From an uncultured Clostridia bacterium (GTDB lineage: Bacteria; Bacillota_I; Bacilli_A; RF39; UBA660): DNA of 64,000 nt. The position numbers were made by a program, and so were the translations under genes. Location: positions 4,194 through 68,193 of the forward strand of contig CAMJWT010000009.1 in NCBI GenBank assembly GCA_946409545.1, in the 5' to 3' direction. The notes beneath the pieces are model-generated. The model saw only the letters and a list, made by a program, of their open reading frames with translations. It did no database searches and had not been told where the DNA came from. Positions 1,530 to 44,139 of this stretch are shown here, piece after piece (positions within the stretch are counted from its first letter, which is position 1; every line of letters starts with the position of its first letter).

Positions 1530-4118
1530 CTATTTGGCTTCATACCACGTACGACCATATTCTATATCAACTTTAAGTGGTACGTCAAGTTTATAAATAT
1601 TTTCCATTACATCACGAATTAATGTTTTCATTATTTCTACTTCATTCTCAGGTACATCGAAGACAAGTTCATCATGTACTTGTACTAACATTTTACTATT
1701 TAAGTTTTCTTCATCAATTCTTCTTTGCATTTCAACCATTGCCATTTTAATAATATCAGCAGCGGTTCCTTGAATTGGTGTATTCATAGCCATTCTCTCA
1801 CCACTACTTCTAATTAAATAGTTTTTATTATTAAGTTCTTCAATAACCCTTTTACGATTAAAAAGCGTTTTAACATAACCATTTTTATGAGCGTCTTCAA
1901 CAATCTTTTTCATATATGTTGATATTTCTGGAAATGTTTCTAGGTAATTATCAATAAAGTCTTTAGCTTCATATAAGTTAATACCTAAATCTTCTGATAA
2001 TCCAAAGCCACTTATTCCATAAATAATTCCAAAGTTAACAGCTTTAGCTTGTCTTCGCATATTTTTATCAACATTTTCAATTGGTACATGAAAAATATCA
2101 CTAGCGGTTTTTGCATGAATATCAAGATCATTTGTAAAAGCATGAATCATATTTGTAGCATGAGACATATGAGCAAAAACACGTAATTCAATTTGCGAAT
2201 AATCACTTGAGATAATAATACTATTTTCTCTTGGAATAAATGCTTTTCTTATTAATCTACCTTCTTCAAGACGAATTGGAATATTTTGTAAATTGGGTCT
2301 TTCACTTGATAATCTTCCTGTTCTTGTTAAAGTTTGATTATAAATAGTATGTATTTTACCATCACTTTTAATTTCTTCCATCAAACCAACTATATAATTA
2401 CTTAATAATTTAGATAAAGTTCTAAACTTTAATATTTTTTCAATTATTGGATAATCAGCAAGCTTATCAAGAATATCTTTACTTGTTGAATAATTACCGT
2501 CTTTTACTCTCTTTGGATATGGTAACATCATTTTATTAAATAAAACATCACTTAATTGTTTAGGAGATGCAATATTAAATTCTACTCCTGCTAGTTCATA
2601 GATTTCTTTTTCTAAATTATTTATTTCTTTTTCAAGATCTTCTTTCATATTAAGTAAATAATTTTTATCTACTCTAAATCCAGTTTCTTCCATTTTAGCA
2701 AGAACATAAACAAGTGGAAGTTCTATATCAAAATATAACTTTTCCATCTCTTCAGACTTTACTTCTTCTAAAAGTTCATTACGTTTTTCATAAATAAATG
2801 AACTTTTTTTACAAGTATCTTTAACATAAATATCTAATTCTTTTTCTTTAATCGTTATTTCACTTCCAAAGATTTTATCATAGAAGTTAATATCATAATC
2901 ATAAGTATTAGCAAGATACGCAATATCATTTTTTACATTTTTATTTAATAAATAAGCTTCTATCATTAAATCACGAACATTCTTATCAATACTTACATTA
3001 TATTTATCAAATATTACTAATACTTTCTTTAAATCATATGTTGTCTTACTTGCTCCATCATTAAAAATATCACTATTTTCTATCAATTCAAAAGGAACAT
3101 AATAATTATTTTTACTTGTAGAAATACTAACACCAAGTGGCTTCGCATCATGATAGTTATATCCAAGAACTTCAAGATAAAAACTATATTCTTTTTCAAG
3201 AATAAGTTCAGACAAATCATTAACTACTTTGTAAGAAAATTCTTTTTCAACTTTTTTCGTTTCTACTTTTTTTAACATTGAATAAAACTCAAGTTCATTT
3301 AAAATATTTACATAATCATCATTATTACCCAAATATTTAATATTATCTATGTTAGTATCAATAGGTACTTCACGATAGATGGTGGCAATTTCATAACTTA
3401 GATATGCATTATCTTTATCATTTTCTAACTTCTCTTTAGTTTTACCACTAATATCATTTATATTTTCATAAACGCCATCTAAAGAACCATATTTTTGTAG
3501 AAGTGATAGAGCAGTCTTCTCACCTATTCCTTTAACACCAGGGATATTATCACTAGCATCTCCCATAAGCGATTTTATATCAACCATCTTCTTTGGATCA
3601 TCAAGTCCATATGTGTTTTTAAACTCTACTTTATCCATCATGATATAATCTTTAGTTTTTAATAATTTAACTTTGTTTTTATCACTTATTAATTGTAATA
3701 AATCTTTATCACTACTTATAATTAATCCTTCATAGTCATTACTTTTATCAATGACACTTGCAAAAGTACCTATAATATCATCGGCTTCATAATTATCAAT
3801 TTCAAAATACTTTATTCCCATCGCATCACATAGTCTACGTGATACTGGAAACTGTAATTTTAATTCATTAGGTGTCTCATCTCTTTTACCTTTATAAACA
3901 TCATATTTTTCATGTCTAAAAGTTTTTCCTTTATCAAAAGCTACCATTAAATATTCTGGTTTTTCTTCATCAATTATTTTATGTAACATATTGATGAAAC
4001 CAAAAATAGCATTTGTTGGAAAACCTTTACTATTACGCATTAAATTACCATTATAAGCGGTTGCAAAAAAACTTCTAAATAATAAGTTATTACCATCAAT
4101 TAGAACTACTTTCTTCAT
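1530..4118 (-). CDS. polA: DNA polymerase I
   Basis: 862 aa. It has an N-terminal 5'-3' exonuclease (VLIDGNNLLFRSFFA) and polymerase motif A (DYSQIELR), motif B (RRQAKAVNFGIIYG) and motif C (QVHDE). Confidence 0.95.
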   Translation of the reverse strand: MKKVVLIDGNNLLFRSFFATAYNGNLMRNSKGFPTNAIFGFINMLHKIIDEEKPEYLMVAFDKGKTFRHEKYDVYKGKRDETPNELKLQFPVSRRLCDAMGIKYFEIDNYEADDIIGTFASVIDKSNDYEGLIISSDKDLLQLISDKNKVKLLKTKDYIMMDKVEFKNTYGLDDPKKMVDIKSLMGDASDNIPGVKGIGEKTALSLLQKYGSLDGVYENINDISGKTKEKLENDKDNAYLSYEIATIYREVPIDTNIDNIKYLGNNDDYVNILNELEFYSMLKKVETKKVEKEFSYKVVNDLSELILEKEYSFYLEVLGYNYHDAKPLGVSISTSKNNYYVPFELIENSDIFNDGASKTTYDLKKVLVIFDKYNVSIDKNVRDLMIEAYLLNKNVKNDIAYLANTYDYDINFYDKIFGSEITIKEKELDIYVKDTCKKSSFIYEKRNELLEEVKSEEMEKLYFDIELPLVYVLAKMEETGFRVDKNYLLNMKEDLEKEINNLEKEIYELAGVEFNIASPKQLSDVLFNKMMLPYPKRVKDGNYSTSKDILDKLADYPIIEKILKFRTLSKLLSNYIVGLMEEIKSDGKIHTIYNQTLTRTGRLSSERPNLQNIPIRLEEGRLIRKAFIPRENSIIISSDYSQIELRVFAHMSHATNMIHAFTNDLDIHAKTASDIFHVPIENVDKNMRRQAKAVNFGIIYGISGFGLSEDLGINLYEAKDFIDNYLETFPEISTYMKKIVEDAHKNGYVKTLFNRKRVIEELNNKNYLIRSSGERMAMNTPIQGTAADIIKMAMVEMQRRIDEENLNSKMLVQVHDELVFDVPENEVEIMKTLIRDVMENIYKLDVPLKVDIEYGRTWYEAK

Positions 4119-4719
4119 TATTTGTTACTCCATATTTTACTGTTAATTTATAACTATCAAATTCTCCAGTTGCTTTCATATAATTTGAATAATCAAAATC
4201 AATTTGATAAATATTTTTATCTTTATCAACAAAGATTATTATTGGATTGGTACCATCTTCAAGATTTTCTTTATAATTTAATATTTTAGCAAGATCTTTA
4301 TTAGTTATTTCATATTTATAACTTATTAAGTCTGATCCATTTTCAACTTTTAATAAATATTTTGCATTTTTAATTATTTGTTTAATTGTATAAATATTAA
4401 CTAATTCTTTATATTTATATTCAGATAATTCATAGTTTTCATCATCTCTAACACCAGAAAAAGTATAAGTGTTATCATTCTCTTCAATATAATAAGAATA
4501 TTGATAATTATTATTTTCAATCATATCTGTTTTATAAATAATATCTTCTTCTTTAACAGGAGGTACTTTAACTTGTTCTCTTGTTGTTCGTATAAAATAT
4601 ATTAATAAAGCAAAAAAGACAAAATAGAAACCAAAGAATAAAATCATTCTTCTTTTTTTAACATCTGGTTGTTCTTTCCAATCATTATAATTTTTAAACA
4701 TTTCTTTTAATTTCTTCAT
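4096..4719 (-). CDS. hypothetical membrane-anchored protein
   Basis: 207 aa with a single N-terminal TM (ILFFGFYFVFFALLIYFI). It overlaps the polA start by 23 nt and follows the fmt stop by 2 nt, so it is probably operonic. Confidence 0.45.
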   Translation of the reverse strand: MKKLKEMFKNYNDWKEQPDVKKRRMILFFGFYFVFFALLIYFIRTTREQVKVPPVKEEDIIYKTDMIENNNYQYSYYIEENDNTYTFSGVRDDENYELSEYKYKELVNIYTIKQIIKNAKYLLKVENGSDLISYKYEITNKDLAKILNYKENLEDGTNPIIIFVDKDKNIYQIDFDYSNYMKATGEFDSYKLTVKYGVTNNEESSSN

Positions 4720-5672: not shown

Positions 5673-5712
5673 ATAAATCACCAATTTAATTTTATCAAAT
5701 TTATGTAACAAA

Positions 5713-5735
5713 AAAAAGAGTTAAAAACTCTTTTT
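5713..5735 (-). terminator. rho-independent terminator hairpin after the 982-aa surface protein gene
   Basis: AAAGAGTT-AAA-AACTCTTT flanked by A- and T-runs overlaps the stop codon. Confidence 0.5.
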
Positions 5736-8682
5736 ATTGTTCGCCAAAATATAAAATATCAACAACTGCACGATATGTTGTTTCATTTGGTCTTTTATAT
5801 TGATAGATAGAATAAACAGAAGACATTGTATTGGTTTTATAATACATTCCTGTTGATCCACCACCATCAAGATTAACAACAATATTACATCCAAAGGTAT
5901 CATGCATATCTTTATGATGAGTATCCATAGCACTAAAGTATCCTGTAGCTAAGACGAAATTATTTTCATCAATTTGACATAGAGTTGTACGTGGATCACT
6001 TCCACCACCAGTTTGCCAATTACCAGTTACAAAATGAGTAACACCCCAGGCATTTCTTGCCCCATTACTTTTTAGCCATTCCATCATCGTATTAGCATCA
6101 CTTGATGTTTTATTTATTAGTTTACCATTTTTGTCTATTGATAAAGTACCATAAACAACACTTCTTCCATCAGCCAATTGCGTCTTATAGTGATCATTTA
6201 CTACTAAATTACCTCTTGTAGCAAGAACGGGAATATTATCTCTTCCATTAATTGCGAAACCACCATTAGTACCAATCATACCTTTATTTTGATAGCCATA
6301 ATTTTTTATTTCATAATCAAAGTGACTTGGTTTCGTTCTTGTATTAAATCCACTATTACCACAATTTAATTGTTTATAAGCATCTTTTACCCATATTAAG
6401 GAATAAAATTTATTATCTTTAGAAATCGTTTTATATTTTAAAGTTGCACTACTATAACTCTTATTTTCTAGTACGTTATATCCACTTGGAACATGTTGTG
6501 TTATATCATAACCACTTGATTCTTTTTTCCACATTGCATATAAAGTTAAGGTATTATTTTTAATTCCCCACTCGCCATTAGTATATTTCCAAGTTCCACT
6601 CCAACCTGTCCAATTATAACCATCATCACTTCCAGAGCTATTAGTTGTCCAACCACTAAATTTATAACCAGTTTTAACAAAACCATTATTCTTAATTGAA
6701 CAACTTTCATTCATCTTACAAACATGACTAGATACACTTCCACTTGTTGCCCCATTGCCTTTATAATTAATCGTATATTCATTAGAAGTATCTTTTGCCC
6801 AATGTGCATATAAAGTTATATCACTATTTATATTAACGATTGTTGATGAAATGATTTTTGTTCCACCACTCTTTTCCGTGTACCATCCTTTATATGTATA
6901 ATTACTTCTTGTTGGTGTTGGCAATTCACCATATTTATTACCAACCGTAACTGTCTTACTAGTTGGTGTTACACTACCACCATTTGGATTAAAAGTGACT
7001 TTATAAGTTGTCACTGGAGTTTCACTTTTTTTAACTGTAATTTTACAAGTTGCGGATTTGTTATTACTTGTCGTTACCGTAATGGTAGCTGTTCCACTAG
7101 ATACTGCTGTTACAACACCACTACCACTCACGGTAGCAACACTTTTATTACTACTCTTCCATGTAATTTCTTTATTAGTAGCATTACTTGGTTTTATCGT
7201 TTTAACAAGAGATATTGTATCTGATATATTTAGAGTTGCACTTGTTTTATTTAAACTTATACTTTCAACTGGTACTTCATTTACAACAACTCTAATCTTT
7301 TTCGTAACATGTTTACTTTTAACAATTATTTCAGTTGTTCCTTTACCTTTACCTGTTATTAAACCATCTTTTACAGTCGCAACACTTTTATTTGAACTTT
7401 CCCAAGTAATAGTCTTATATGTTGCATTTTCCGGTAATACTTTAGCTTCTATTTTCTTTGTTCCATTAACATTAATTGAAACATCTTTTTGTGATAATTC
7501 AATATCAGTATCAAGAGTTTCAGTATCAACTTTTTTTACTTTTACAGATGCGGTATCTTTATGAGAACCATCATTTGTTTCAATTGTTAATGTAGCATTT
7601 CCTGCTCCTACTGCTTTAATCTTAGTACCCGTAATAGTAATAACATTTGTATCACTACTTTTTAGTTTTACACCTTGATTCGTAGCATCACTTGGAATAA
7701 TATCATATTCAATATTTTTAACTTCACCAATTGCTAGTTCAATATTATGTTCTAGAAGTTTTACTTCTTTCACCTTAACCGTCGTACTAGAACTATTTAC
7801 AGTAACATTAACATAACCCTCTAGTCCATTAATCGTTGTACCAACAATTTGTGTTGTTCCAACACTTTTTCCAGTTACAACACCATCTTTAGATACAACC
7901 GCAACACTGTTATCTAAACTTTCCCATGTAACAGTATTATTAGCATTACTTGGAGTTATGGTAGCTTTAATTTTTTGACTACCACCAACATTTATTTTAA
8001 TATCTTTTGGTGATAATTCTATTTTCTTTGGTTCAACTACTTCTTCGCGATCATGAACTGTTACTTCAACATCTTCATGAATTCCCGTTATTTTTTCACT
8101 AACAATAATATTACAATTACCAATACCTTTTGCTTCTATTTTTCCATTACTATCAACAATGGCAACATTAGGGTCACTTGTCATATATTCTATTTCATGC
8201 AAAGTTGATTCTTTTGGTGTAAGTTTAAAATTCAATTGGAATGTTCCACCAACAATTAAATCTACTTTTTTCGTATTTAAAGTTATACCTGTTATTTCAA
8301 TATTGTTATCAGATACAATAACCAAACATTCTGCACTAATATTATTATATTTATCTAAGTAAGCCGTTATTGTTGCTACACCATTTTTCTTAGCTTCAAT
8401 AAATCCTGTTAACTCATTAACTGTAACAATATCTGGTTTATCACTTTTAAATAATATTTTTCGACTACGAGTATTATCTGGTAAAACTTTAGCATTTAAT
8501 TGAAAACTATTATTTCTTTTTAATCTTATTTCACTTTGAGACAAATTTATTATTTCCGGTTTATTTTCATACGGATTATCAATTATGCCAAATGTTGTAA
8601 GAGCAAATAAAACAACAAAAGCTATTAAAGCAAGCATTAATCCATAAGCAATTAATCTCAAAAAAAATCTTATTACTTTCAT
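5734..8682 (-). CDS. surface-anchored protein: N-terminal signal-anchor, multiple Big_2 (bacterial Ig-like) domains, Listeria-Bacteroides repeats, C-terminal phosphodiester-glycosidase-like domain
   Basis: 982 aa. It has an N-terminal TM (LIAYGLMLALIAFVVLFALTTF) and repeated about 85-aa units with a VTW(E/T)SS(N/D)...A(T/S)V...G signature (Big_2). Two internalin-like Listeria-Bacteroides repeats (YKVTFNPNGG...GWYTEKSGGTKI...LYAHW) are present. The C-terminal domain ends in a VVNLDGGGSTGMYYK motif shared with two paralogs. Confidence 0.7.
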   Translation of the reverse strand: MKVIRFFLRLIAYGLMLALIAFVVLFALTTFGIIDNPYENKPEIINLSQSEIRLKRNNSFQLNAKVLPDNTRSRKILFKSDKPDIVTVNELTGFIEAKKNGVATITAYLDKYNNISAECLVIVSDNNIEITGITLNTKKVDLIVGGTFQLNFKLTPKESTLHEIEYMTSDPNVAIVDSNGKIEAKGIGNCNIIVSEKITGIHEDVEVTVHDREEVVEPKKIELSPKDIKINVGGSQKIKATITPSNANNTVTWESLDNSVAVVSKDGVVTGKSVGTTQIVGTTINGLEGYVNVTVNSSSTTVKVKEVKLLEHNIELAIGEVKNIEYDIIPSDATNQGVKLKSSDTNVITITGTKIKAVGAGNATLTIETNDGSHKDTASVKVKKVDTETLDTDIELSQKDVSINVNGTKKIEAKVLPENATYKTITWESSNKSVATVKDGLITGKGKGTTEIIVKSKHVTKKIRVVVNEVPVESISLNKTSATLNISDTISLVKTIKPSNATNKEITWKSSNKSVATVSGSGVVTAVSSGTATITVTTSNNKSATCKITVKKSETPVTTYKVTFNPNGGSVTPTSKTVTVGNKYGELPTPTRSNYTYKGWYTEKSGGTKIISSTIVNINSDITLYAHWAKDTSNEYTINYKGNGATSGSVSSHVCKMNESCSIKNNGFVKTGYKFSGWTTNSSGSDDGYNWTGWSGTWKYTNGEWGIKNNTLTLYAMWKKESSGYDITQHVPSGYNVLENKSYSSATLKYKTISKDNKFYSLIWVKDAYKQLNCGNSGFNTRTKPSHFDYEIKNYGYQNKGMIGTNGGFAINGRDNIPVLATRGNLVVNDHYKTQLADGRSVVYGTLSIDKNGKLINKTSSDANTMMEWLKSNGARNAWGVTHFVTGNWQTGGGSDPRTTLCQIDENNFVLATGYFSAMDTHHKDMHDTFGCNIVVNLDGGGSTGMYYKTNTMSSVYSIYQYKRPNETTYRAVVDILYFGEQ

Positions 8683-8712
8683 ATAATCTCCTATTTTAAT
8701 TATAACATGATT

Positions 8713-10371
8713 CTAATCTTCTACAATATAGAACATATCAGCAATGGCTCTTCCACCACCAAAACGCTTTTTAGCACTAGACATTGAACCTGTTTTATAA
8801 TATAGTTTTCTACTTCCGCCCCCATCTAAGTTAGCAGCTCTAACACATCCATATCGACTTTTTAATTCTTTACCAATACCATATAGACTTAAACCGCCAC
8901 CTGAATAAATAACAAAATTATTTTTATTAACCTGACATATAACCGTTCTATTCGTACTATCACGTCCTGAATCAGGATTTAAAAGACTTCCATCATTACC
9001 AATTGGTGAAACGGCATAAGCAAAGTTATTTCTAATACCATCTTTTTGCATTTCATTTTTTACTTTCATATTAGCATTATAATTAGTTGATGAAAAACCA
9101 GAATACATTTTTAAAATACCATCTTTTGTAATACCAACGGTTCCATAAATATTATTTGAATACTTTTTATTTTCAACATCACGTAATACTTTTCCTTTAT
9201 TAATAACATAAGGAATACCTGGGGAGCCTCCCCACCCAGCCCAAAAGAAACTTCCATTAGTAGCAACTAAACCTTTCTTTTGATATCCATATGTACTTAT
9301 TTCGTGACTTAATATAACTTCGGCCGTCTTTTCATTACCAAATGATGGAATAGCCGAATTAATTTGTTTATAAGGATCAGCTACCCATACAAGGACATAA
9401 TCAGCACTTCCTACATTTTGAATACGATATTTAAGAGTTTTACTTTTATATGAAGCTATTTCTTTACCAATTTTATATTTACTATCATCAGTAATAGCAG
9501 GTAATGTATCTGCTTTAACGGTAATATTACAAGTTACAGCCTTATTATTAGATGTTTTAGCTGTAATTACACAACTACCTTCTTTAAGACCTTTAACAAC
9601 ACCATCCAAAACTTGACATATACTTGTATCAGAACTTTCCCAAGTAACGGTTTTATCAGTTGTATCCGATGGCGTTATTGTTGCCTTTAAGGTTACCGTT
9701 TCATTAACTTTAATTGTTTCTTTTTCTTTGTTTAAAGTTATTTTTTCAGCTTCAATTATTTTTTTATTAATATGAACTGATACACTTGCTTCAATACCAT
9801 TTTTACTTTTGATTGTAACTGTTGCATCACCATCTTTAATTGCTACAATATTTCCTTCATTATCAAAAGCTAAAATACTAGTATCACTACTTGTCATTGA
9901 TACATTTTTATCAGTTGCATCATCAGGAACAATTTCATATTCTATTTTTTTAGTATCACCAACATCCATTATAATATTATTATTAATTATTCTTATTTCT
10001 GTAACTTCGACTATTTTATTCATGACGTTAACTTGAATAATTTTATTAACTAATTGATTTTCTGATGTTACTCTAACAATTGTATTACCTTCACTAATAC
10101 CTTCTAGTTCACCATTTTTAACACTCGCAATAGAAGGATTAACACTATACCATGTAACAGATTTATATTTAGTATCTTCTGGTAAAACTTTATAAGTAAT
10201 GATATATTTATCACCTACGTATAGACTGATATTATTACTAGATAACTCTATATCTTTTTCATATATTTCATTGGTTTTACTATCACTTGATACTAAACCA
10301 CTAATGATCATATAGATACTTATAAGTAATATGACAATGAATAATACCTTTATGCCAATATCCTTTTTCAT
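8713..10371 (-). CDS. surface protein with Big_2 repeats and C-terminal phosphodiester-glycosidase-like domain
   Basis: 552 aa. It has an N-terminal TM, three Big_2-like units and a C-terminal domain homologous to the neighbours (AANLDGGGSRKLYYKTGSMSSAKKRFGGGR). Confidence 0.65.
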   Translation of the reverse strand: MKKDIGIKVLFIVILLISIYMIISGLVSSDSKTNEIYEKDIELSSNNISLYVGDKYIITYKVLPEDTKYKSVTWYSVNPSIASVKNGELEGISEGNTIVRVTSENQLVNKIIQVNVMNKIVEVTEIRIINNNIIMDVGDTKKIEYEIVPDDATDKNVSMTSSDTSILAFDNEGNIVAIKDGDATVTIKSKNGIEASVSVHINKKIIEAEKITLNKEKETIKVNETVTLKATITPSDTTDKTVTWESSDTSICQVLDGVVKGLKEGSCVITAKTSNNKAVTCNITVKADTLPAITDDSKYKIGKEIASYKSKTLKYRIQNVGSADYVLVWVADPYKQINSAIPSFGNEKTAEVILSHEISTYGYQKKGLVATNGSFFWAGWGGSPGIPYVINKGKVLRDVENKKYSNNIYGTVGITKDGILKMYSGFSSTNYNANMKVKNEMQKDGIRNNFAYAVSPIGNDGSLLNPDSGRDSTNRTVICQVNKNNFVIYSGGGLSLYGIGKELKSRYGCVRAANLDGGGSRKLYYKTGSMSSAKKRFGGGRAIADMFYIVED

Positions 10372-10421
10372 AGCACTCCTACTATATTTATTTTAACTTT
10401 TTTTAGCAAATTAATAAAGAA

Positions 10422-10449
10422 AAAAGTAGACATTTTTTTGTCTACTTTT
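10422..10449 (-). terminator. terminator hairpin after the 1314-aa gene
   Basis: AAAAGTAGACA-TTTTTT-TGTCTACTTTT. Confidence 0.55.
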
Positions 10450-10460
10450 ACTTATTTTTA

Positions 10461-13400
10461 TTAATCATGAAAATATAACATATCAGGTAATTGACGATCT
10501 CCACCAAAGACTTTTTTTGGTTCTGACATATCCTTGGTTTTATAGTATAATTTTCTACTACCTCCACCATCTAAATTATATGGTTCTTTACATCCAGTTA
10601 AACTAATAATAATATTTCCACATCCAGAAACAGTACCACTTCCTGATAGTAATACAAAGTTATTAGTGTCATACTGACATATTTGTGTTCTATTAGCATT
10701 ATTGGTGCTATGATCAATCGAAGTTGGACTACTTATTGCAAAGGTACTATGAACACCATCATCACTAAATGTTGATGCTGGTTTATCAACATATAATTTT
10801 AAATTACCTTTACTATTAACACCAACAACTGCCGCACTTGTACTACCATTATTCTTAGCAAATTTACCATGACTTCGAACGATACCACCTTTTGGTGTTC
10901 CATTAGCAAAGAAACTTGCATTTACAGCTACTAAACCTTTATTTTGTAAACTATAATTTTTTATCTCATTCTTTAAGATTGTTTCAGCAGGTAAAACACC
11001 TTGAGCATTTGAATAAGCAAGGGCACTTTCAAGTTGCGTCTTTGGATCAGCTACCCAAATAAGGATAATATCTTGAGACTTATATGAGAAAATACGATAT
11101 TTAAATGTTGAACTACTATAAGATACTTTATTAGAATAACTACTATATTTACTATCTTCCGTAATAACATATCCTGTAGTTGCTGCTTTTTCAACAGTAA
11201 CTTTACAAGTTGCCGTTTTTCCATTACTTGTTTTAGCCGTAATGGTAGCTGTTCCCGCCTTTTTACCAGTTACTTTTCCACTACTTGATACTGTAGCAAC
11301 TCCCGTATCACTACTTGACCATGTTACGGTTTTATCGGTTGCATTATCTGGATAAACAGTTGCTGTTAATGTTTTAGAAGCATTAACTTTAACCGTTATT
11401 GATGTGTTATCTAAACTAATACTTGTTACTGCTACTGTTGCTTTTTCAACGGTTACTTTACAAGTTGCGGTCTTTCCATTATTGGATTTTGCTGTTATCG
11501 TTGCTGTTCCTGCTTTCTTACCAGTTACTTTTCCACTACTTGATACTGTAGCAACTCCTGTATTAGAACTTTCCCATGTTACTGTTTGATTTGTCGCATT
11601 ACTTGGTGTTATCGTTGCAACAAGTGTTTTCGTTCCTTCTTCTTTTATTGTAATAGATGTTTTATCTAAACTAATTCCCGTTACTGCTACGGTTGTTGTA
11701 GCTTTTTCAACAGTAACCTTACAAGTTGCTGTTTTACCATTATTGGATTTTGCTGTTATCGTTGCTGTTCCTGCTTTCTTACCAGTTACTTTTCCCGAGC
11801 TTGTTACTGTAGCAACTTCTGTATTAGAACTTTCCCATGTTACAGTTTGATTTGTAGCATTACTTGGTGTTATCGTTGCAACAAGTGTTTTCGTTCCTTC
11901 TTCTTTTATCGTAATAGATGTTTTATCTAAACTAATTCCGGTTACTGCTACTGTTGCTTTTTCAACAGTTACTTTACAAGTCGCTGTTTTTCCATTATTA
12001 CTAGTAGCTGTTATGGTTGTAGTACCTTCTTTCATTGCTGTTACAACACCTGTATTTGATATCGTTGCAACACTTTGATCACTACTCGTCCAAGTAATTG
12101 TTTTATTAGTTGCATTACTTGGACTAACTGTAGCTACTAAAGTTTTTGTTCCTCCTACTTTTAAAGTAATTGCTGTATTATCTAAACTAACACCTGTTAC
12201 CGAAACTGTTGTTGTGCTTGATTCAACAGTTACTTTACAAGTTGCTGTTTTTCCATTATTAGATTTTGCTGTTATTGTTGCAGAACCTGTTTTAATTCCT
12301 TTAATTTTTCCACTACTTGATACAGTTACTATACTATTGTCACTACTTGTCCAAGTAACTGTTTTATTAGTTGCATTACTTGGATAAACAGTCGCTGTTA
12401 AAGATACTTCTTCTCCAACTTTTGTTTTTATACTATTTGTATTTAATGTAACACTTTGAACATCAATAATACTTGAGTTAACTGTCACTTTACAAGTGTC
12501 TTTCTTACCATTTACAGTAGTCACTGTTATGGTTGCTGTTCCTACTCCTTTAGTTTTAACAACACCATCTGATACTGTAGCAACAGTCGTATTAGAGCTT
12601 TCCCATGTAACTTTCTTATTTGTTGCATTACTTGGATTAATTGTTGCAATTAAATGAATTTCATCATCAACTGTTGTATTAATAGCATTAATATTTAAAG
12701 ATACTGATTGTACTGGTACATTATCTGCTTTAACATTAACTGTACAAGTTGCTGTTTTGCCATTACTTGATTTTGCTGTTATCGTTGCTGTTCCTACTCC
12801 TTTAGCTACTACTAATCCATCTTTTACAGTTGCAACACCAGTATTAGAACTTGTCCATGTAATAGTTTTATTTGATGTATTAGTTGGAGTGAACGTAACT
12901 GTTAAAGCATCTTTTGAACCAACGATTAAATCTAATGTTTTCTTATTTAAAGATATACTTTGTGCTTCTACATTAGAAACTGTTACTTTTATTTTTTTAG
13001 AAATATTCTTATGTACTGTTGTTACTGTTACCTCAGTTGTTCCAGCACTCTTTCCTTCAATTAAACCATTATTGACAGAAGCAATATTAGGATTACTACT
13101 AGACCACATAACACTTTGATAAGTTGCATTTGAAGGTACAACACTTGCTTCAACTTTCGTTGTTCCACCAATTGTTAGATTAACATTTGTTTTTGATAAA
13201 TTAATATCGGTTTCATCAATGATACTACTTACATTATTAACTATGACATTAATAGTTGCTTTATAACCACCATCATTAGTTCTAATTGTTACTTTAGCCG
13301 TACCACTTTCCATTGCGATAATCTTATTACCATCAACTTTAACAATACCATTATCGCTACTTGTAATAGTTACTCCTTGGTTAGTTGCATTACTTGGTTT

Positions 13401-14405
13401 AATTGTATATTCAATTTCAGCACTCTTACCTACATCTAAAGTAATATTACTATTTTTAACACTTATTCCAGTTACACCAACTACTTTATCAGTTACCGTA
13501 ACATCTATTAATTTTTCAATACCATTAACTGTTGTTGCAGCAATCTTAGTACTTCCAACTTGTTTACCAGTTACTACACCTTTACTATTAACTGTTGCAA
13601 TACTTGTATCAATACTTTCCCAAGTTACACTTTGATTAGCTTTTGCTGGCTTAACTTTGGCACTTATTTGTTTACTACCATCAACATTAATAGTTACTTT
13701 TTGTGGACTTACTTCAAGACCGGTTGGATCTACAACATCATCATGTATATCATCTCCAGGGTTATCTTCACTACTAAAGACTTTTACTAGAGCCGAGTCT
13801 TGAATTCCTGTTACTTTATCAGATACTGTAATATAGGCTTGTCCTTCTGCTTTTGCTTCAATCATACCTAAATTATCTATTATTGCAACTTCTGGATCAC
13901 TAGTCATATATTCAAATTCATGAAGAGTTGCTTCATGAGGAGTATATTTAAAACTAATTTGATATTTCTTTCCAATTTGTAAATTAATATTTTTAGGATT
14001 TACGATTATTTTTTCAATTCGAATATTATTTTCAGAAACAACTACTAAACATTCTGCTTTAATTTTTTCGTTTGATTCTAAATAAGCGGTGATTGTAGCA
14101 ATACCATTCTTTTTGGCTTCAACATAACCCGTTACCTCATTTATAGAAACAATATCTGGTTTATCACTTTTATATTTTACTTTACCACTACGTGTATTTT
14201 CTGGATAAACTTTACTTGTTAATTGAAAACTCTTATTCTTTTTCAATCTTATCTCGCTTTGCGATAAACTTATTAATTCAGCTTTTTTATCATAGGGACT
14301 ATCAATAACACCATATGTTACTAATCCAAAATAAACAACAAAGCCTAAGATACCAATTAATAATAATATTGATATCAATCTTAAAAATCCTCTTATTATT
14401 TTCAT
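10461..14405 (-). CDS. large surface protein with about 12 Big_2 repeats and C-terminal phosphodiester-glycosidase-like domain
   Basis: 1314 aa. Its N-terminus is homologous to the 5734 and 14539 paralogs. It carries an internal array of near-identical about 87-aa Big_2 units (KATVAVTGISLDKTSITIKEEGTKTLVATITPSNATNQTVTWESSNT...). The C-terminal domain reads YNLDGGGSRKLYYKTKDMSEPKKVFGGDR. Confidence 0.7.
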   Translation of the reverse strand: MKIIRGFLRLISILLLIGILGFVVYFGLVTYGVIDSPYDKKAELISLSQSEIRLKKNKSFQLTSKVYPENTRSGKVKYKSDKPDIVSINEVTGYVEAKKNGIATITAYLESNEKIKAECLVVVSENNIRIEKIIVNPKNINLQIGKKYQISFKYTPHEATLHEFEYMTSDPEVAIIDNLGMIEAKAEGQAYITVSDKVTGIQDSALVKVFSSEDNPGDDIHDDVVDPTGLEVSPQKVTINVDGSKQISAKVKPAKANQSVTWESIDTSIATVNSKGVVTGKQVGSTKIAATTVNGIEKLIDVTVTDKVVGVTGISVKNSNITLDVGKSAEIEYTIKPSNATNQGVTITSSDNGIVKVDGNKIIAMESGTAKVTIRTNDGGYKATINVIVNNVSSIIDETDINLSKTNVNLTIGGTTKVEASVVPSNATYQSVMWSSSNPNIASVNNGLIEGKSAGTTEVTVTTVHKNISKKIKVTVSNVEAQSISLNKKTLDLIVGSKDALTVTFTPTNTSNKTITWTSSNTGVATVKDGLVVAKGVGTATITAKSSNGKTATCTVNVKADNVPVQSVSLNINAINTTVDDEIHLIATINPSNATNKKVTWESSNTTVATVSDGVVKTKGVGTATITVTTVNGKKDTCKVTVNSSIIDVQSVTLNTNSIKTKVGEEVSLTATVYPSNATNKTVTWTSSDNSIVTVSSSGKIKGIKTGSATITAKSNNGKTATCKVTVESSTTTVSVTGVSLDNTAITLKVGGTKTLVATVSPSNATNKTITWTSSDQSVATISNTGVVTAMKEGTTTITATSNNGKTATCKVTVEKATVAVTGISLDKTSITIKEEGTKTLVATITPSNATNQTVTWESSNTEVATVTSSGKVTGKKAGTATITAKSNNGKTATCKVTVEKATTTVAVTGISLDKTSITIKEEGTKTLVATITPSNATNQTVTWESSNTGVATVSSSGKVTGKKAGTATITAKSNNGKTATCKVTVEKATVAVTSISLDNTSITVKVNASKTLTATVYPDNATDKTVTWSSSDTGVATVSSSGKVTGKKAGTATITAKTSNGKTATCKVTVEKAATTGYVITEDSKYSSYSNKVSYSSSTFKYRIFSYKSQDIILIWVADPKTQLESALAYSNAQGVLPAETILKNEIKNYSLQNKGLVAVNASFFANGTPKGGIVRSHGKFAKNNGSTSAAVVGVNSKGNLKLYVDKPASTFSDDGVHSTFAISSPTSIDHSTNNANRTQICQYDTNNFVLLSGSGTVSGCGNIIISLTGCKEPYNLDGGGSRKLYYKTKDMSEPKKVFGGDRQLPDMLYFHD

Positions 14406-14486
14406 ACACTACTCCTATTTTAATTATATCATCGATTATAATATCTACAATTATTTTAAAAATTTTATTTATATGTTTACATAATA

Positions 14487-14511
14487 AAAAAGTGATAAAA
14501 TATCACTTTTT
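14487..14511 (-). terminator. terminator hairpin after the 735-aa gene
   Basis: AAAGTGATA-AAA-TATCACTTT followed by a T-run. Confidence 0.55.
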
Positions 14512-14538
14512 TTATTTATTAAGGTATTAATAATTTTA

Positions 14539-16746
14539 TCAATTATCTTCAATAATATCATCAGAAGATGTTGAAACTTCTTCTTTAACTGTTACATTAC
14601 AAGTATCTATTTTTCCATTATATGCTTTTACCGTTATAATAGCAGTTCCTTCACTAACACCTTTTACAATACCATTGGCATTAACTTTTGCAATACTAGT
14701 ATCACTACTTTCCCATGTTACATTTTGATTTGTTGCATTAAATGGATTAAAGGTTACATGTAATTCTTTTTTTTCACCAACTTTCAACAATAGCTCGTTG
14801 TTATCTAAAGATATACTATCTAGTTCTACAACTTTATTATTTCCACTTACTATAACTTCACAAGTTGCAGATAGTCCATTAACTGTTGAAGCTTTAATTG
14901 TAGTTTTTCCTACACCTATAGTTTCTACTACACCATCTGATACCGTTGCAACACTCGGATTAGAACTTTCCCATATAACTTTTTTATTTGTAGCATTATC
15001 TGGGTTTATTGTTGCTGTAATATAAATTCGATCATTAACTTCAGTATTAATTACTTGTTTATCTAATGTAATTTCTGAAACAGGAACTCTATTTTCTATA
15101 ACATTAATAGTACACAACGCCGTTTTATTATTATTTGTTTTTACAGTAATATTTGTTGTACCTACACTTAATGCTTTTACTAGACCATTATCAACAGTAG
15201 CAACATTAGGATTAGAACTAGTCCAAGTTACATTTTTATTAGTAGCGTTACTTGGAGTAACTGTTTTAACTAATACGAGTTCATCACCTACAGTAATATT
15301 AGCATTTTTCTTATCTAAACTAATACTTTGAACTTCTTGTTCACGAACTGTTACATTTATTTTTTTTGAAATACTTTTATATACACTTGTAACGATAACA
15401 TCCGTTTTACCGATTCCTTTTCCTACGATTAAACCATCTGATACTGTTGCAATAGATGAATCTTTACTATTCCATAATAAACTTGTATAAGTTGCATTAG
15501 ATGGAATAACATTAGCATTTATTTTATCAGTTCCACCAACAATAATATCTACATTATTTTTAGATAAATTAATATCTTTTTCTTCAATAATTCGAGATAC
15601 TTTATTAACTATTACTTTAGAAGTATCTTTATATCCACCATCAAGGGTTTCAACTGTTACTTTAGCTTCACCACTTTTTATAGCGATTATTCTATTTCCA
15701 TCTATTCTTATTATTTCACCATTATTTGTTGATATTTTAACACCTTGATTGGTAGCGTTTGATGGATTTATTTTATAAGTTAACTTTTTACTATCACCAA
15801 CATTCATTGTTATATTCTTATTCGTAATATTAATACCTTTAACTTTAACTATATCGCTAGTTACTTTAACTGTAATGAAATCTTCTATCCCATTAATCGT
15901 TGTAGCTAATATTTTAGTTGTTCCTTCTTTTATTCCTGTTACTACTCCTAAATCAGATACCATTGCAATATTACTATCCATACTTTCATATGTAATATCA
16001 CTATTAGCTCCTTCTGGAGAAATAATTGTTTCAATTTGATTACTACCACCAATACTTACAGTCATATTTTTAGGTTTTAATTCAAGTTTCGTTGGAACAT
16101 CTTCTTCTAATTTTTCATAAACATTTACTTCTACTTCTTGATATACACCAGATACTTTATCACTAACAACAACCAATGTTGTTCCACTATTAATTGCTTT
16201 GATATTACCATTACTATCAACTGTTGCTACTTTAGGATCTCCTGTCATATATTCTATTTCATGTAAAGCTGCTTCTTTTGGTAATATTTTATAATTAATT
16301 TTGTATTGATTACCAACTTGTAAATATACTCTTTTAGTACTTAAAATTATTTCTTCAATACGAATATCATTATCAGATACAATTACAAGACACTGAGCTT
16401 TAATATCTTTATATTTATCCAAATATGCAGTAATTGTTGCAACACCATTATTTTTAGCTTCTAAATATCCTGTTATTTCATTAACACTAACAATATTAGG
16501 TTTATCACTTTCAAAAATAATTTTTTTATTTTTCATATCACCTGGAAGAATCTTGGCATTTAATTGAAATGATTTAAACTTTTTTAATCTAATTTCACTT
16601 TGTGATAAAGATAAATCTTCTGGTTTCTTTTCAAAAGGATTACTTATTACTCCAAAAGACAATAATGAAAAACCTATGATAAATACTACGATAAATATCA
16701 TAAAATACACTGATATCTTTTTAACTAATACATTATCAAATTTCAT
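14539..16746 (-). CDS. surface-anchored Big_2 repeat protein (no catalytic C-terminal domain)
   Basis: 735 aa. The N-terminal signal-anchor plus first two domains are homologous to the 5734 and 10461 paralogs. About seven Big_2 units follow, and the protein ends in an acidic tail. Confidence 0.65.
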   Translation of the reverse strand: MKFDNVLVKKISVYFMIFIVVFIIGFSLLSFGVISNPFEKKPEDLSLSQSEIRLKKFKSFQLNAKILPGDMKNKKIIFESDKPNIVSVNEITGYLEAKNNGVATITAYLDKYKDIKAQCLVIVSDNDIRIEEIILSTKRVYLQVGNQYKINYKILPKEAALHEIEYMTGDPKVATVDSNGNIKAINSGTTLVVVSDKVSGVYQEVEVNVYEKLEEDVPTKLELKPKNMTVSIGGSNQIETIISPEGANSDITYESMDSNIAMVSDLGVVTGIKEGTTKILATTINGIEDFITVKVTSDIVKVKGINITNKNITMNVGDSKKLTYKINPSNATNQGVKISTNNGEIIRIDGNRIIAIKSGEAKVTVETLDGGYKDTSKVIVNKVSRIIEEKDINLSKNNVDIIVGGTDKINANVIPSNATYTSLLWNSKDSSIATVSDGLIVGKGIGKTDVIVTSVYKSISKKINVTVREQEVQSISLDKKNANITVGDELVLVKTVTPSNATNKNVTWTSSNPNVATVDNGLVKALSVGTTNITVKTNNNKTALCTINVIENRVPVSEITLDKQVINTEVNDRIYITATINPDNATNKKVIWESSNPSVATVSDGVVETIGVGKTTIKASTVNGLSATCEVIVSGNNKVVELDSISLDNNELLLKVGEKKELHVTFNPFNATNQNVTWESSDTSIAKVNANGIVKGVSEGTAIITVKAYNGKIDTCNVTVKEEVSTSSDDIIEDN

Positions 16747-16787
16747 AATTAACTCCTACATTTTTATTATAACATTTATACTTATTA

Positions 16788-16815
16788 AAAAGTGAACAAA
16801 TTATTGTTCACTTTT
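16788..16815 (-). terminator. terminator hairpin after the NlpC/P60 surface protein gene
   Basis: AAAAGTGAACAA-ATTA-TTGTTCACTTTT. Confidence 0.55.
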
Positions 16816-16816
16816 T

Positions 16817-18340
16817 TTACCATTTAATCCACATATTAGTTAGTTTTCCATCACCATTTGCATATATTACATTTCGATAATATGCATCTTGATGTTCAGG
16901 ATCAGTACAGTCACCATTACGACAATTTGTTGAAGGATTAGGAGGATTCTTTTTAGAAATTTTGTTTAAACCATTACTTAATGTATAAATATAATCATCA
17001 TCTATTCCGATAATTAATTCATCATGGCCAAAAGGAATACCTACAATATTTTTCTTATCACGATCATAAGAAAGTAAAACGTCACCTACTCTTATTTTAT
17101 CTAGATTACCTCTTACAGGCGTTGGACTATTAGAATAAGCTCTTCTAATGCCATTAGTATTAAATGGCCAATTCATAAATCCCGTACAATCCATACCATT
17201 TATATATCCATTTTTTCGACAACCCCAAGAGTTAGTTTTAGTTCCAAAATGTAATCCTGCCGTATAAATATTATTTCCACCAGTTCCTTGATAAGCAATA
17301 ACATATGGAATATTACCCATTAAGAATCTACCAGCTTCGACAACCCCTGCTCTAGTTCCTCTTCCTACTTTATTAATAATACTATTCAATTGATTATTTA
17401 GTTTATCATTTTCAGCATCACTTATTTTTCCACAATAACCTGATGAATATAATGGAGTTCCATTATTTGGTTTAAAATGATATGGCAATTTATCTGTTAT
17501 AGAACATTTAACAGTCTTCGTTCTTCCATCATCAAGAGTTAAAGTAACTTTTATATTAGTATATCCTCTTGTAGCATTCTTATAAGCATTTTTACCATCT
17601 ACTTCTTTACCATTTAAATCCCATCTATATTTTTTTACGACATCTAAATTGTCACCAGTTACTTTTGCTGATGTACCATCAGTATCTACTTTTCCACTAC
17701 ATTTGAAATTATAATTAATTGGTTTAACAACAACAGTGCATGTTGCATATTTGTTGTTATTAGCTTTAGCAATGATTGCAACTGTTCCTGCTTTAACACC
17801 TGTTATAACACCATTATCTACTGTAGCAATACTATTATCACCACTTATCCATTCAATACTTTTATCAGTGGCATCACTTGGATTAATCGTAGCTGTTAAA
17901 GTTTCTTTTGCTCCAACTTTAATTGAAAGTGATTCTTTATCTAAGATAACTTCACTTACTTCAATAATAGGTTTTTTTACAATAACTTCACATGTTGCTG
18001 TTTTACCATTATTTGATTTAGCAGTTATTATAGCATTACCTGCCGTTAACCCTGTAACATTTCCATTATCAACTGTAGCAATATTACTATCACTACTTTC
18101 CCAAGTAACAGTTTTATTAGTTGCATTAACCGGTAATATTGTTTCTCTAATAGTTGCACTGTCACCTTCTATTAATACAAGAGATATCGTATCTAGAGCT
18201 ATACTATTTACTTCAACAGTATTATCATCACTACCTGTATTATCACCAGTATTACTTGGAGTATTATCAAGGAATAATAATAGTACACATAAAGCTATTA
18301 AAACTATAAAGATAATTATCGCTATAGAATATTTCTTCAT
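16817..18340 (-). CDS. surface-anchored Big_2 protein with C-terminal NlpC/P60-family (papain-fold) peptidase domain
   Basis: 507 aa with an N-terminal TM and two Big_2 units. The C-terminus has the motifs GMDCTGF ... VGDVLLSY ... GHDELIIG, which is the canonical NlpC/P60 Cys-His arrangement. Confidence 0.62.
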   Translation of the reverse strand: MKKYSIAIIIFIVLIALCVLLLFLDNTPSNTGDNTGSDDNTVEVNSIALDTISLVLIEGDSATIRETILPVNATNKTVTWESSDSNIATVDNGNVTGLTAGNAIITAKSNNGKTATCEVIVKKPIIEVSEVILDKESLSIKVGAKETLTATINPSDATDKSIEWISGDNSIATVDNGVITGVKAGTVAIIAKANNNKYATCTVVVKPINYNFKCSGKVDTDGTSAKVTGDNLDVVKKYRWDLNGKEVDGKNAYKNATRGYTNIKVTLTLDDGRTKTVKCSITDKLPYHFKPNNGTPLYSSGYCGKISDAENDKLNNQLNSIINKVGRGTRAGVVEAGRFLMGNIPYVIAYQGTGGNNIYTAGLHFGTKTNSWGCRKNGYINGMDCTGFMNWPFNTNGIRRAYSNSPTPVRGNLDKIRVGDVLLSYDRDKKNIVGIPFGHDELIIGIDDDYIYTLSNGLNKISKKNPPNPSTNCRNGDCTDPEHQDAYYRNVIYANGDGKLTNMWIKW

Positions 18341-18474
18341 ACACTTCTCCTATTATAATAATAACATTCTTTATAAATTTTAATAACAAAAAACAAATAT
18401 AATTTATTGTTATTTACAATATTTATTAATACAACTTTTTAAAGAATATTGTATAATTAAAATATGGAGGATAA

Positions 18475-21680: not shown

Positions 21681-21692
21681 CTGACCTCCTTT

Positions 21693-23159: not shown

Positions 23160-23170
23160 CTACTGACCTC

Positions 23171-44050: not shown

Positions 44051-44139
44051 ATATTCCTCCTATGTAAATTATATCATTGATAAAAATAAAAATTATCTTT
44101 TTGACACAATTAAACAAACAAAAAAGTGGATAAATCCAC

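Follow-up and report, generated by a model that had tools for sequence, protein, structure and literature searches.

Expansion of a one-gene slot beside fmt into an array of Ig-stalked envelope proteins with replaceable C-terminal modules in an uncultured Clostridia bacterium

Five consecutive genes of an uncultured Clostridia bacterium, here called A to E, encode paralogous envelope proteins in which an N-terminal hydrophobic anchor is followed by a rod of 2 to 12 immunoglobulin (Ig)-like Big_2 domains. The genes occupy positions 5734-18340 on the minus strand of a 64-kb window, by which we mean the whole stretch of 64,000 nucleotides that was analyzed (contig CAMJWT010000009.1, positions 4,194 to 68,193). 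The array is specific to its lineage and arose in place, by expansion of a conserved slot that holds one gene and lies between a nucleotidyl-transferase (NTP-transferase)/HIT gene pair and fmt. What is new is the evolutionary picture, in which a one-gene slot became five genes, a C-terminal cassette was replaced at a domain boundary, and the number of stalk repeats varied. We infer that the function of the proteins is to process wall polymers, either on the cell's own wall or on foreign material. The five genes are as follows.

5734-8682, minus strand: gene A, 982 amino acids; N-terminal transmembrane (TM) anchor, six Big_2 domains, two Flg_new repeats, A-type NAGPA domain
8713-10371, minus strand: gene B, 552 amino acids; TM anchor, three Big_2 domains, B-type NAGPA domain
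10461-14405, minus strand: gene C, 1314 amino acids; TM anchor, 12 Big_2 domains, C-type NAGPA domain
14539-16746, minus strand: gene D, 735 amino acids; TM anchor, eight Big_2 domains, without a catalytic module
16817-18340, minus strand: gene E, 507 amino acids; TM anchor, two Big_2 domains, a beta domain of about 75 amino acids without a family, C-terminal divergent NlpC/P60 domain

All five proteins are built on the same plan. ORF calling returned intact open reading frames (ORFs) exactly where a preliminary description of the window had placed five consecutive same-strand genes, and the Big_2 stalks it had proposed for all five were recognized by Pfam (PF02368; 205.7, 89.8, 523.5, 268.0, and 95.0 bits for A, B, C, D, and E, with a gathering cut-off of 22.8 bits). 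The corresponding E-values range from 1e-25 to 5e-161 and are 2.5e-27 for E. A hidden Markov model (HMM) built from the window's own repeats resolved 6, 3, 12, 8, and 2 contiguous Big_2 domains in A, B, C, D, and E, starting at about residue 41. Each protein has a single hydrophobic segment, which is N-terminal only, and an LPXTG sortase anchor is absent from A to E, the C-termini of A, B, C, and E being predicted enzyme domains. Proteins A to D are tiled almost completely by the TM segment, Big_2, Flg_new, and NAGPA domains, and E likewise with NlpC/P60, except for the beta domain of about 75 residues. In A, the two Flg_new repeats (PF09479; 80.1 bits, Pfam cut-off of 27 bits) stand between the stalk and the enzyme. 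D stops directly after its eighth Big_2 domain and is the one gene without a catalytic module, as had been described. Three N-termini of about 200 residues had also been called nearly identical, but those of A, C, and D proved to be merely 51-59% identical over the first 210 residues, with collinear homology running on to about residue 560 at 45-52%. Part of the stalk of C is encoded by a tandem repeat.

11179-12383, minus strand: 255-bp tandem repeat in C, 4.7 copies with one Big_2 domain each, copies at most 93% identical (Tandem Repeats Finder)

How the array arose is indicated by its relatives. In four contigs whose fmt genes are 73-75% identical to that of the window (L093, L098, L099, and L102), the slot holds one B-like gene of 553 amino acids with three Big_2 domains and an NAGPA domain, in the order HIT and NTP-transferase, B-like gene, fmt, hyp207, and polA. 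These one-gene slots came from a metagenome scan and not from the 80 species genomes that were also compared. Because a single B-like gene occupies the slot in relatives, we conclude that the array is an in-place expansion and that B is its conserved core member. Moreover, an independent assembly (L089) reproduces the same C-B-A order at 97.5% identity over 10.4 kb, and thus the repeat-rich structure of the array is real and no assembly artifact. None of the 80 more distant species genomes showed a Big_2/NAGPA array, or any Big_2 or NAGPA gene, near fmt within the upstream sequence available, which reached at most 10 kb, and the nearest relative carries unrelated genes at the slot. Lookup of protein E led to contigs of the same species and of a sister species, and exact lookup found no record of protein B in public assemblies. 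The window has a G+C content of 0.23-0.34 and mostly minus-strand genes; the array, at 0.27-0.31, is like the rest of the window and shows no sign of a mobile element. Recent horizontal transfer or a prophage origin was considered and rejected, given the matching G+C content and the housekeeping genes on either side (NTP-transferase, HIT, fmt, and polA).

The array varies both between strains and between sister species, in the repeats of C, the cassette of A, and the truncation of D. Contigs of the same species are 98% identical, and C in them is 1229 instead of 1314 amino acids long, a difference of exactly one 85-residue Big_2 unit that maps to the 255-bp repeat. In the sister species (L006), hyp255, NTP-transferase, HIT, hyp353, and RpoA are 88-99% identical to their counterparts in the window, whereas the array genes are 74-88% identical, and a set of SH3_3 paralogs and gene F, both found farther along the window, are 35-74% identical. 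The NAGPA domains of the B and C orthologs of the sister species are 90% and 81% identical to those of the window, and its C ortholog is reduced to 971 amino acids with eight Big_2 domains. Across strains and the sister species, therefore, C measures 1314, 1229, or 971 amino acids, while B (552 and 552) and E (507 and 508) hardly vary in length. The D ortholog of the sister species is truncated to 218 amino acids (71% identical over 203), and most of D is replaced by a minus-strand gene at 11548-13266 of that locus, which encodes a GDPD domain (PF03009), two Big_2 domains, and a C-terminal TM anchor. Finally, the A ortholog (A6) is 81.5% identical to A over amino acids 1-584, that is, the stalk, and 37% identical in the C-terminal domain, and it lacks Flg_new. 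Homology between the DNA of the window and that of the sister species ends at position 7018, the junction in A between the stalk and the cassette that begins with Flg_new.

5734-7017, minus strand: replaceable C-terminal cassette of A, made up of two Flg_new repeats at 6535-7017 and the NAGPA domain at 5737-6525

Beside the fmt of a further contig, which is 96% identical to that of the window at the DNA level, stands a cassette of the B type that is 60% identical to B and 30% to A. The C-terminal modules had been proposed to be swappable, and the cassette of A, together with the B-type cassette of this contig, bears that out. We conclude that the family evolves by gain and loss of Ig repeats, insertion and loss of Flg_new, exchange of the whole C-terminal cassette where stalk and enzyme meet, and truncation and gain of genes. 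The proteins are not, however, paralogs that differ in the tip alone. The A-, B-, and C-type NAGPA domains are mutually just 30-42% identical, and the three types diverged long ago. Different types also stand side by side elsewhere (A-type with B-type in L090, C-type with B-type in L092), and tandem NAGPA arrays of two to four genes are common (L090, L091, L092, L096, L108, L115, L116, and L129).

Three of the five proteins carry NAGPA domains at their C-terminal tips.

5737-6525, minus strand: NAGPA (phosphodiester glycosidase) domain of A; PF09992, 33.3-36.9 bits
8716-9480, minus strand: NAGPA domain of B, amino acids 298-552; PF09992, 55.7 bits
10464-11192, minus strand: NAGPA domain of C, amino acids 1072-1314; PF09992, 49.9 bits with the C-terminus scanned alone

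The gathering cut-off of PF09992 is 25 bits, and the match in C was masked in the full-length scan. At up to 36.9, 55.7, and 49.9 bits, the three C-termini are thus placed in the family to which the preliminary description had assigned them. The motif NLDGGGS(T/R)(G/K)(M/L)YYKT is present in A, B, and C as had been noted, but it lies 25-40 residues before the C-terminus and does not end the domain. Among 13 aligned family members, the Asp, two of the three Gly residues, and the Ser of DGGGS are invariant, and the third Gly is nearly so. In vertebrate NAGPA, which cleaves the glycosidic C-O bond of N-acetylglucosamine-1-phospho-mannose (GlcNAc-1-P-Man), the DGGGS loop (D286-S290 of the human enzyme) is strictly invariant from bacteria to humans, and D286 and R316 are essential for activity (PMC13474241, a structural study of 2026). 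An invariant Arg follows the Asp at a distance of 25 residues in most of the 13 aligned sequences, B included (farther in A, which has an insertion), against 30 in the human enzyme; it may be the counterpart of the phosphate-binding R316. The family profile also matched vertebrate NAGPA structures (PDB 6pkg, E-value of 5.4e-8). Moreover, when an AlphaFold (AF2) model of the B domain (pLDDT of 88.4) was compared by Foldseek, the eight best matches were all vertebrate NAGPA, zebrafish, frog, and guinea pig being on top (E-values of 4e-12 to 1e-9, probability of 1.00, TM-scores of 0.62-0.65), at a sequence identity of about 17-20%. Membership of the A, B, and C C-termini in the NAGPA family is therefore well supported by profile and model, and their activity is a prediction.

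An Ig stalk that ends in an NAGPA domain is common among uncharacterized proteins of gut Firmicutes and is not special to the source organism. An exhaustive profile search collected 1,420 clusters of the NAGPA subfamily at 50% identity, 137 of them at an E-value of 1e-30 or lower, and protein C itself is present among the representatives as P0028. Nearly all of the best 150 representatives have the NAGPA domain at their C-terminus; an N-terminal hydrophobic segment was found in 123 of 145, and DGGGS is kept in 126. When 70 relatives were sampled, 29 carried Big_2, 18 carried Flg_new, and 14 carried another surface Ig-like domain. What is specific to the lineage is the five-gene array with three NAGPA types and an NlpC/P60 member. 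We note that a group of proteins of about 400 amino acids (P0020-P0026) joins a TM segment to a Lys/Glu-rich region, which may be a coiled coil, and an NAGPA domain, and that one of them carries PF18895. In L087, the gene for one protein of this group (3003-4220) lies near NlpC/P60, WXG100, and Phage_lysozyme2 genes, a possible cluster related to secretion or lysis.

The fourth tip belongs to E and is of a different kind.

16820-17494, minus strand: NlpC/P60-like domain of E, amino acids 283-507; Cys (in GMDCTGF) and His (in GHDELIIG) invariant

E is predicted to be a divergent NlpC/P60-like peptidase that stays below the curated HMM threshold. The subfamily is rare, with 13 homologs in 5.8 billion proteins. 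Eight of its 11 members match PF00877 at an E-value of 0.01 or lower (2.2e-9 at best), and four match CHAP. Every match of the family profile to the PDB down to an E-value of 0.08 was an NlpC/P60 enzyme, as were 13 of 16 among the matches listed. Cys103 (GMDCTGF) and His157 (GHDELIIG) are invariant in 11 sequences and align with the catalytic motif DCSG and the HVG of NlpC1 (6biq), and thus two of the three catalytic residues could be assigned. The best sequence and structure matches are NlpC/P60 endopeptidases, and a papain-like NlpC/P60 fold is indicated for E. The NlpC/P60 peptidase that had been claimed for this gene thus stands on its motifs and on the matches of its subfamily, but its own score against PF00877, given below, falls short. 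In one protein (P0007, from an ENA contig, 445 amino acids), an NlpC/P60 domain like that of E (41% identity) follows an N-terminal dihydrofolate-reductase domain (PF00186), and this is either a real fusion or an artifact of gene calling or assembly. Two more distant relatives, whose fmt is about 51% identical, have upstream of fmt a gene for an E-like protein of the NlpC/P60 kind, about 480 amino acids long and without Big_2 (L071, 7033-8475; L080, 161-1609, adjacent in L080). The neighborhood of fmt seems to draw wall-enzyme genes repeatedly.

How the five genes are expressed can be predicted in part. Each of A to E starts with ATG and has an AGGAG ribosome-binding site 5-6 nucleotides upstream, and hairpins resembling terminators follow four of the genes.

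16787-16816, minus strand: terminator-like hairpin and T-run after E (RNA fold of the intergenic spacer)
14480-14512, minus strand: terminator-like hairpin and T-run after D (RNA fold)
10422-10449, minus strand: terminator-like hairpin and T-run after C (RNA fold and consensus scan)
5708-5733, minus strand: terminator-like hairpin and T-run after A, just before fmt (RNA fold)

The four hairpins are AT-rich. The element after C was the only one picked up by a G+C-biased consensus scan for terminators. Each gene had been said to have its own terminator, which agrees with the hairpins after E, D, C, and A but fails for B, as RNA folding found no hairpin in the 30-nucleotide gap between B and A. 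A 17-mer, TATAATTAAAATAGGAG, which comprises a -10-like box, a short leader, and a ribosome-binding site, recurs in the window.

8688-8704, minus strand: TATAATTAAAATAGGAG, directly upstream of A
14412-14428, minus strand: TATAATTAAAATAGGAG, exact, upstream of C
28154-28170, minus strand: TATAATTAAAATAGGAG with one mismatch, upstream of F
18347-18363, minus strand: TATAATTAAAATAGGAG with two mismatches, upstream of E
44057-44073, minus strand: TATAATTAAAATAGGAG with two mismatches, upstream of a membrane cyclophilin peptidyl-prolyl isomerase (PPIase) gene

Five matches were observed against 0.17 expected by chance. Because TATAATTAAAATAGGAG is shared upstream, the paralogs seem to have been duplicated along with their expression signals, and the sequence suggests that gene A probably has its own promoter inside the B-A gap. 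We speculate that TATAATTAAAATAGGAG may be a shared promoter or leader for exported proteins. Phase variation was also considered, but a search around the promoters found no inverted repeats.

Judged by their separate terminators and promoter-like motifs, the genes may be transcribed independently, and perhaps the array is no coordinated system at all. It could be a locally amplified family of surface proteins with independent, redundant, or decaying roles, clustered merely through tandem duplication, and tandem NAGPA paralogs do recur in many unrelated contexts. The neighbors, moreover, are unrelated housekeeping genes, and D, which has no enzyme, is decaying in the sister species. The old A-, B-, and C-type lineages are nevertheless kept side by side in several relatives, which suggests nonredundant roles, and the shared TATAATTAAAATAGGAG hints at common regulation. 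Furthermore, all five ORFs are intact and have strong ribosome-binding sites. We regard independent roles as quite unlikely, and we infer, for now, that the array may be read as a toolkit or system.

How the array acts is best explained, in our view, by stalked wall enzymes. The proteins would stay membrane tethered, as they have no LPXTG, SLH, LysM, or choline-binding module that would hold them otherwise, and the stalk would set the height of the enzyme in or above a Gram-positive-type wall: two to three domains for E and B, eight for A, and 12 for C. E would cut peptidoglycan stem peptides, like other NlpC/P60 endopeptidases. A, B, and C would hydrolyze the glycosidic C-O bond of alpha-N-acetylhexosamine (HexNAc)-1-phosphate diesters and leave a phosphomonoester, like vertebrate NAGPA, and their likely substrates would be phosphodiester-linked wall glycopolymers or linkage units. 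For B and E, turnover of the cell's own wall seems most likely, because their length is constant and single B-like genes hold the slot in relatives. A, C, and D are long, fast shuffling, and partly dispensable; they probably face outward and may act on outer wall layers or foreign material. The theme of polymers linked by phosphodiester bonds is strengthened by the sister species, in which a GDPD enzyme sits on a scaffold of the same kind. GDPD/GlpQ enzymes are generally associated with the degradation of teichoic acid, and that of the sister species may be as well. Taken as a whole, that is, as a lineage-specific expansion together with wall-polymer processing, the explanation by stalked wall enzymes strikes us as evenly poised between right and wrong.

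The cell that carries the array is likely to have a wall. Among the products of the window are LysM and three SH3_3 proteins, and some ORFs of the nearest relative look, by eye and from sequence only, like carboxypeptidases of the PBP5 and VanY kinds; these fit a walled cell. Homologs of fmt come from uncultured gut and rumen metagenome-assembled genomes (MAGs) labelled Bacilli, Erysipelotrichaceae, Tenericutes, or Mycoplasma sp. (CAG:877 and CAG:611), with 67% as the best identity, and we take these MAGs to be RF39-type lineages by GTDB placement. Most RF39 are predicted to have a peptidoglycan wall, with ancestral loss of most lyt/cwl endopeptidases (PMC10868615). That loss would leave a role for a noncanonical endopeptidase. 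RF39-like orders are also predicted to have incomplete synthesis of peptidoglycan precursors and to need scavenged muropeptides (PMC10868615).

Several observations weigh against stalked enzymes that process the cell's wall. E scores 18.7-20.5 bits against PF00877 (E-values of 5e-4 to 2e-3), under the gathering cut-off of 23 bits, and Foldseek gave no significant match for E. In the literature searched, neither a physiological substrate nor an experimental function was found for any bacterial protein of the NAGPA family. Standard wall- and lipoteichoic-acid pathways are predicted to be absent from RF39-like orders (PMC10868615), and thus no own-wall substrate was identified. A conserved partner gene, such as one for an LCP ligase or for teichoic acid, was not found in 148 neighboring ORFs covering 142 Pfam families. 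The C stalk varies in length, as a precise molecular ruler would not be expected to, and the N-terminal segment may be either an uncleaved anchor or a cleaved signal peptide. Finally, type I dockerin is present in 14 of the 70 sampled NAGPA relatives, which suggests that at least part of the subfamily acts on substrates outside the cell. Cellulosome-tethered phosphodiester glycosidases, we note in passing, exist among these relatives.

The dockerins also lend themselves to the main rival, foraging or antagonism, in which the stalked enzymes would reach past the cell's own wall to the walls of neighboring bacteria, or to wall debris, and remove peptidoglycan peptides, phosphodiester-linked GlcNAc, and, in the case of the sister species, glycerophosphate. 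As foraging, this would feed a reduced-genome organism that needs scavenged wall precursors, and both the predicted need for muropeptides and the lack of standard teichoic-acid synthesis (PMC10868615) are in its favor. Cassette replacement, variation in repeat number, and gene turnover between close relatives are typical of outward-facing or conflict proteins, and the array genes diverge faster than most of the flanks (74-88% against 88-99% identity, with 35-74% for SH3_3 and F). The stalks of C and A, with 12 and eight domains, are long enough in principle to cross a wall. Moreover, Bacillota proteins with NAGPA, sometimes NlpC/P60, and recombining Ig-like domains are read as conflict or predation systems in a preprint about the Lipocone superfamily (10.1101/2025.01.14.632903). 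The proteins of the array, however, appear to be membrane tethered and not secreted, B and E have just two to three Ig domains, and the B-like gene is single copy beside fmt in several relatives, like a core gene. Neither immunity-like nor uptake or catabolic genes adjoin the array, and the array proteins have no TelC or toxin domain. We therefore consider foraging or antagonism unlikely, if worth keeping in mind. Perhaps, in its boldest form, the recombining enzymes on graded stalks are a feeding apparatus that harvests the walls or debris of Gram-positive neighbors, with distinct polymer specificities for A, B, and C; we think this a long shot. If it were true, a physiological role would be known for the first time in the bacterial NAGPA family, whose members would act as "teichoicase-like" HexNAc-1-phosphate glycosidases.

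Alternatively, the rods themselves could be what matters. As adhesins, the Big_2/Flg_new rods would fasten the cell to mucus, to epithelium, or to particles of feed, and host or dietary glycans would be trimmed by the enzymes. Pfam describes Big_2 and Flg_new (the Listeria-Bacteroides repeat) as classic building blocks of adhesins and invasins, D is an Ig rod without an enzyme, variation in repeat number is common in adhesins, and the relatives come from gut and rumen samples. D is dispensable, however, being truncated in the sister species, and no lectin or known host-binding module was detected. Moreover, NAGPA domains whose catalytic loop is intact make up three of the five tips and NlpC/P60 a fourth, and the known substrates of NlpC/P60 are bacterial peptidoglycan peptides. 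Adhesion as the main role thus seems very unlikely, and stalked wall enzymes remain the explanation that we prefer.

Other genes of the window share domains with the array.

26379-28148 (likely ATG), minus strand: gene F; lipoprotein with lipobox LVGC, three Big_2 domains, one Flg_new repeat (70 bits), C-terminal domain of 243 amino acids
46162-50343, minus strand: gene G, 1393 amino acids; one TM helix, six Big_2 domains, acidic cytoplasmic N-terminus
20499-24631, minus strand: three tandem SH3_3 paralogs (393, 488, and 486 amino acids), the remainder of each without a family match

F had been taken for an SGNH esterase, but searches of Pfam, NCBIfam, PDB sequences, and homologs lend this no support. 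Its C-terminal domain (26379-27110) had no match in Pfam (at E-values up to 1) or NCBIfam (up to 0.1), no relevant PDB sequence (up to 10), and one weak homolog in 5.8 billion proteins, although it is conserved in the sister species, where the ortholog (F6) lacks Flg_new repeats. Short SGNH-like motifs in that domain (IVGNS, DVIILQE, and DNNH) are a lead only. G is indeed the giant Big_2 protein that had been described at 46162. It contains two copies of a Cys-rich module (CYCN.SG.C.WG...), and HMM searches recognized no catalytic domain in it. The SH3_3 genes look like a second variable array of surface proteins: a contig of the same species (L002) has two (416 and 392 amino acids) where the window has three, and their identity between sister species is the 35-74% given above. 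No Rfam family at the gathering score and no tRNA was found in the window. A large ribosomal-protein operon lies at about 28.5-41.8 kb, yet the usual ribosomal-protein leader RNAs were not detected in the Rfam scan.

Why the locus matters depends on how it is viewed. As genomics, it is a typical family of modular surface proteins and no new kind of system. It is also a compact natural experiment, with three old NAGPA types on 3-, 8-, and 12-domain stalks beside a predicted wall endopeptidase. Together with the lone B-like genes of relatives and the documented cassette swaps, it offers a starting point for NAGPA biochemistry in Gram-positive envelopes, and it could help to show how uncultured, reduced-genome gut Bacilli build or scavenge walls.

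The array resembles several known systems and differs from each. The vertebrate "uncovering enzyme" NAGPA (PDB 6pki, 6pkg, 6pku, and 6u11) shares with A, B, and C the catalytic fold and the DGGGS loop, and it too is membrane tethered on a stalk of small beta-rich domains, which improves its function (PMC13474241). Vertebrate NAGPA, however, is a type I protein with an EGF-like stalk and a TM helix C-terminal of the catalytic core, has a propeptide cleaved by furin, and acts on GlcNAc-1-P-6-Man of N-glycans. A, B, and C have instead an N-terminal anchor, a stalk of 3 to 12 Big_2 domains, and the enzyme at the C-terminal tip. Bacterial DUF2233/NAGPA-family proteins (PDB 3ohg) and the Ig-stalk NAGPA proteins of gut Firmicutes belong to the same Pfam family as A, B, and C, although 3ohg itself is a weak sequence match (E-values of 0.05-0.3). 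Das et al. (2013) is reportedly the reference for the bacterial DUF2233/NAGPA-family proteins.

E resembles the NlpC/P60 DL-endopeptidases (CwlO, LytE, SagA, RipA/B, and MepS, and NlpC1 of Trichomonas, 6bim/6biq) in its predicted papain-like core, its DC(S/T)GF-type Cys motif, and its downstream His. Unlike them, it is extended at the N-terminus by two extra helices and has a C-terminal tail rich in Cys. Known NlpC/P60 enzymes, moreover, are attached by LysM, SH3, or coiled-coil modules, whereas E is attached by a TM anchor and Big_2 domains. The GDPD protein of the sister species, whose gene is absent from the window, is like the array members in that a phosphodiester-directed enzyme sits on an Ig stalk within the array. 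Its topology is inverted, however, with the signal and then the enzyme in the N-terminal part and the anchor at the C-terminus, and it is encoded on the strand opposite to the array. Finally, the TelC-NAGPA(-NlpC/P60) proteins of spore-forming Bacillota (10.1101/2025.01.14.632903) likewise combine NAGPA with NlpC/P60 and diversifying Ig-like extracellular domains, and likewise show recombinational diversity between close relatives. A TelC/Lipocone domain is absent from the array, and no unassigned stretch in A, B, or C is long enough to hold one. Whereas TelC-NAGPA proteins unite their enzymes in one giant fused protein with Ig-like, cell-wall-binding, or propeller domains, the array carries its predicted enzymes on separate paralogs.

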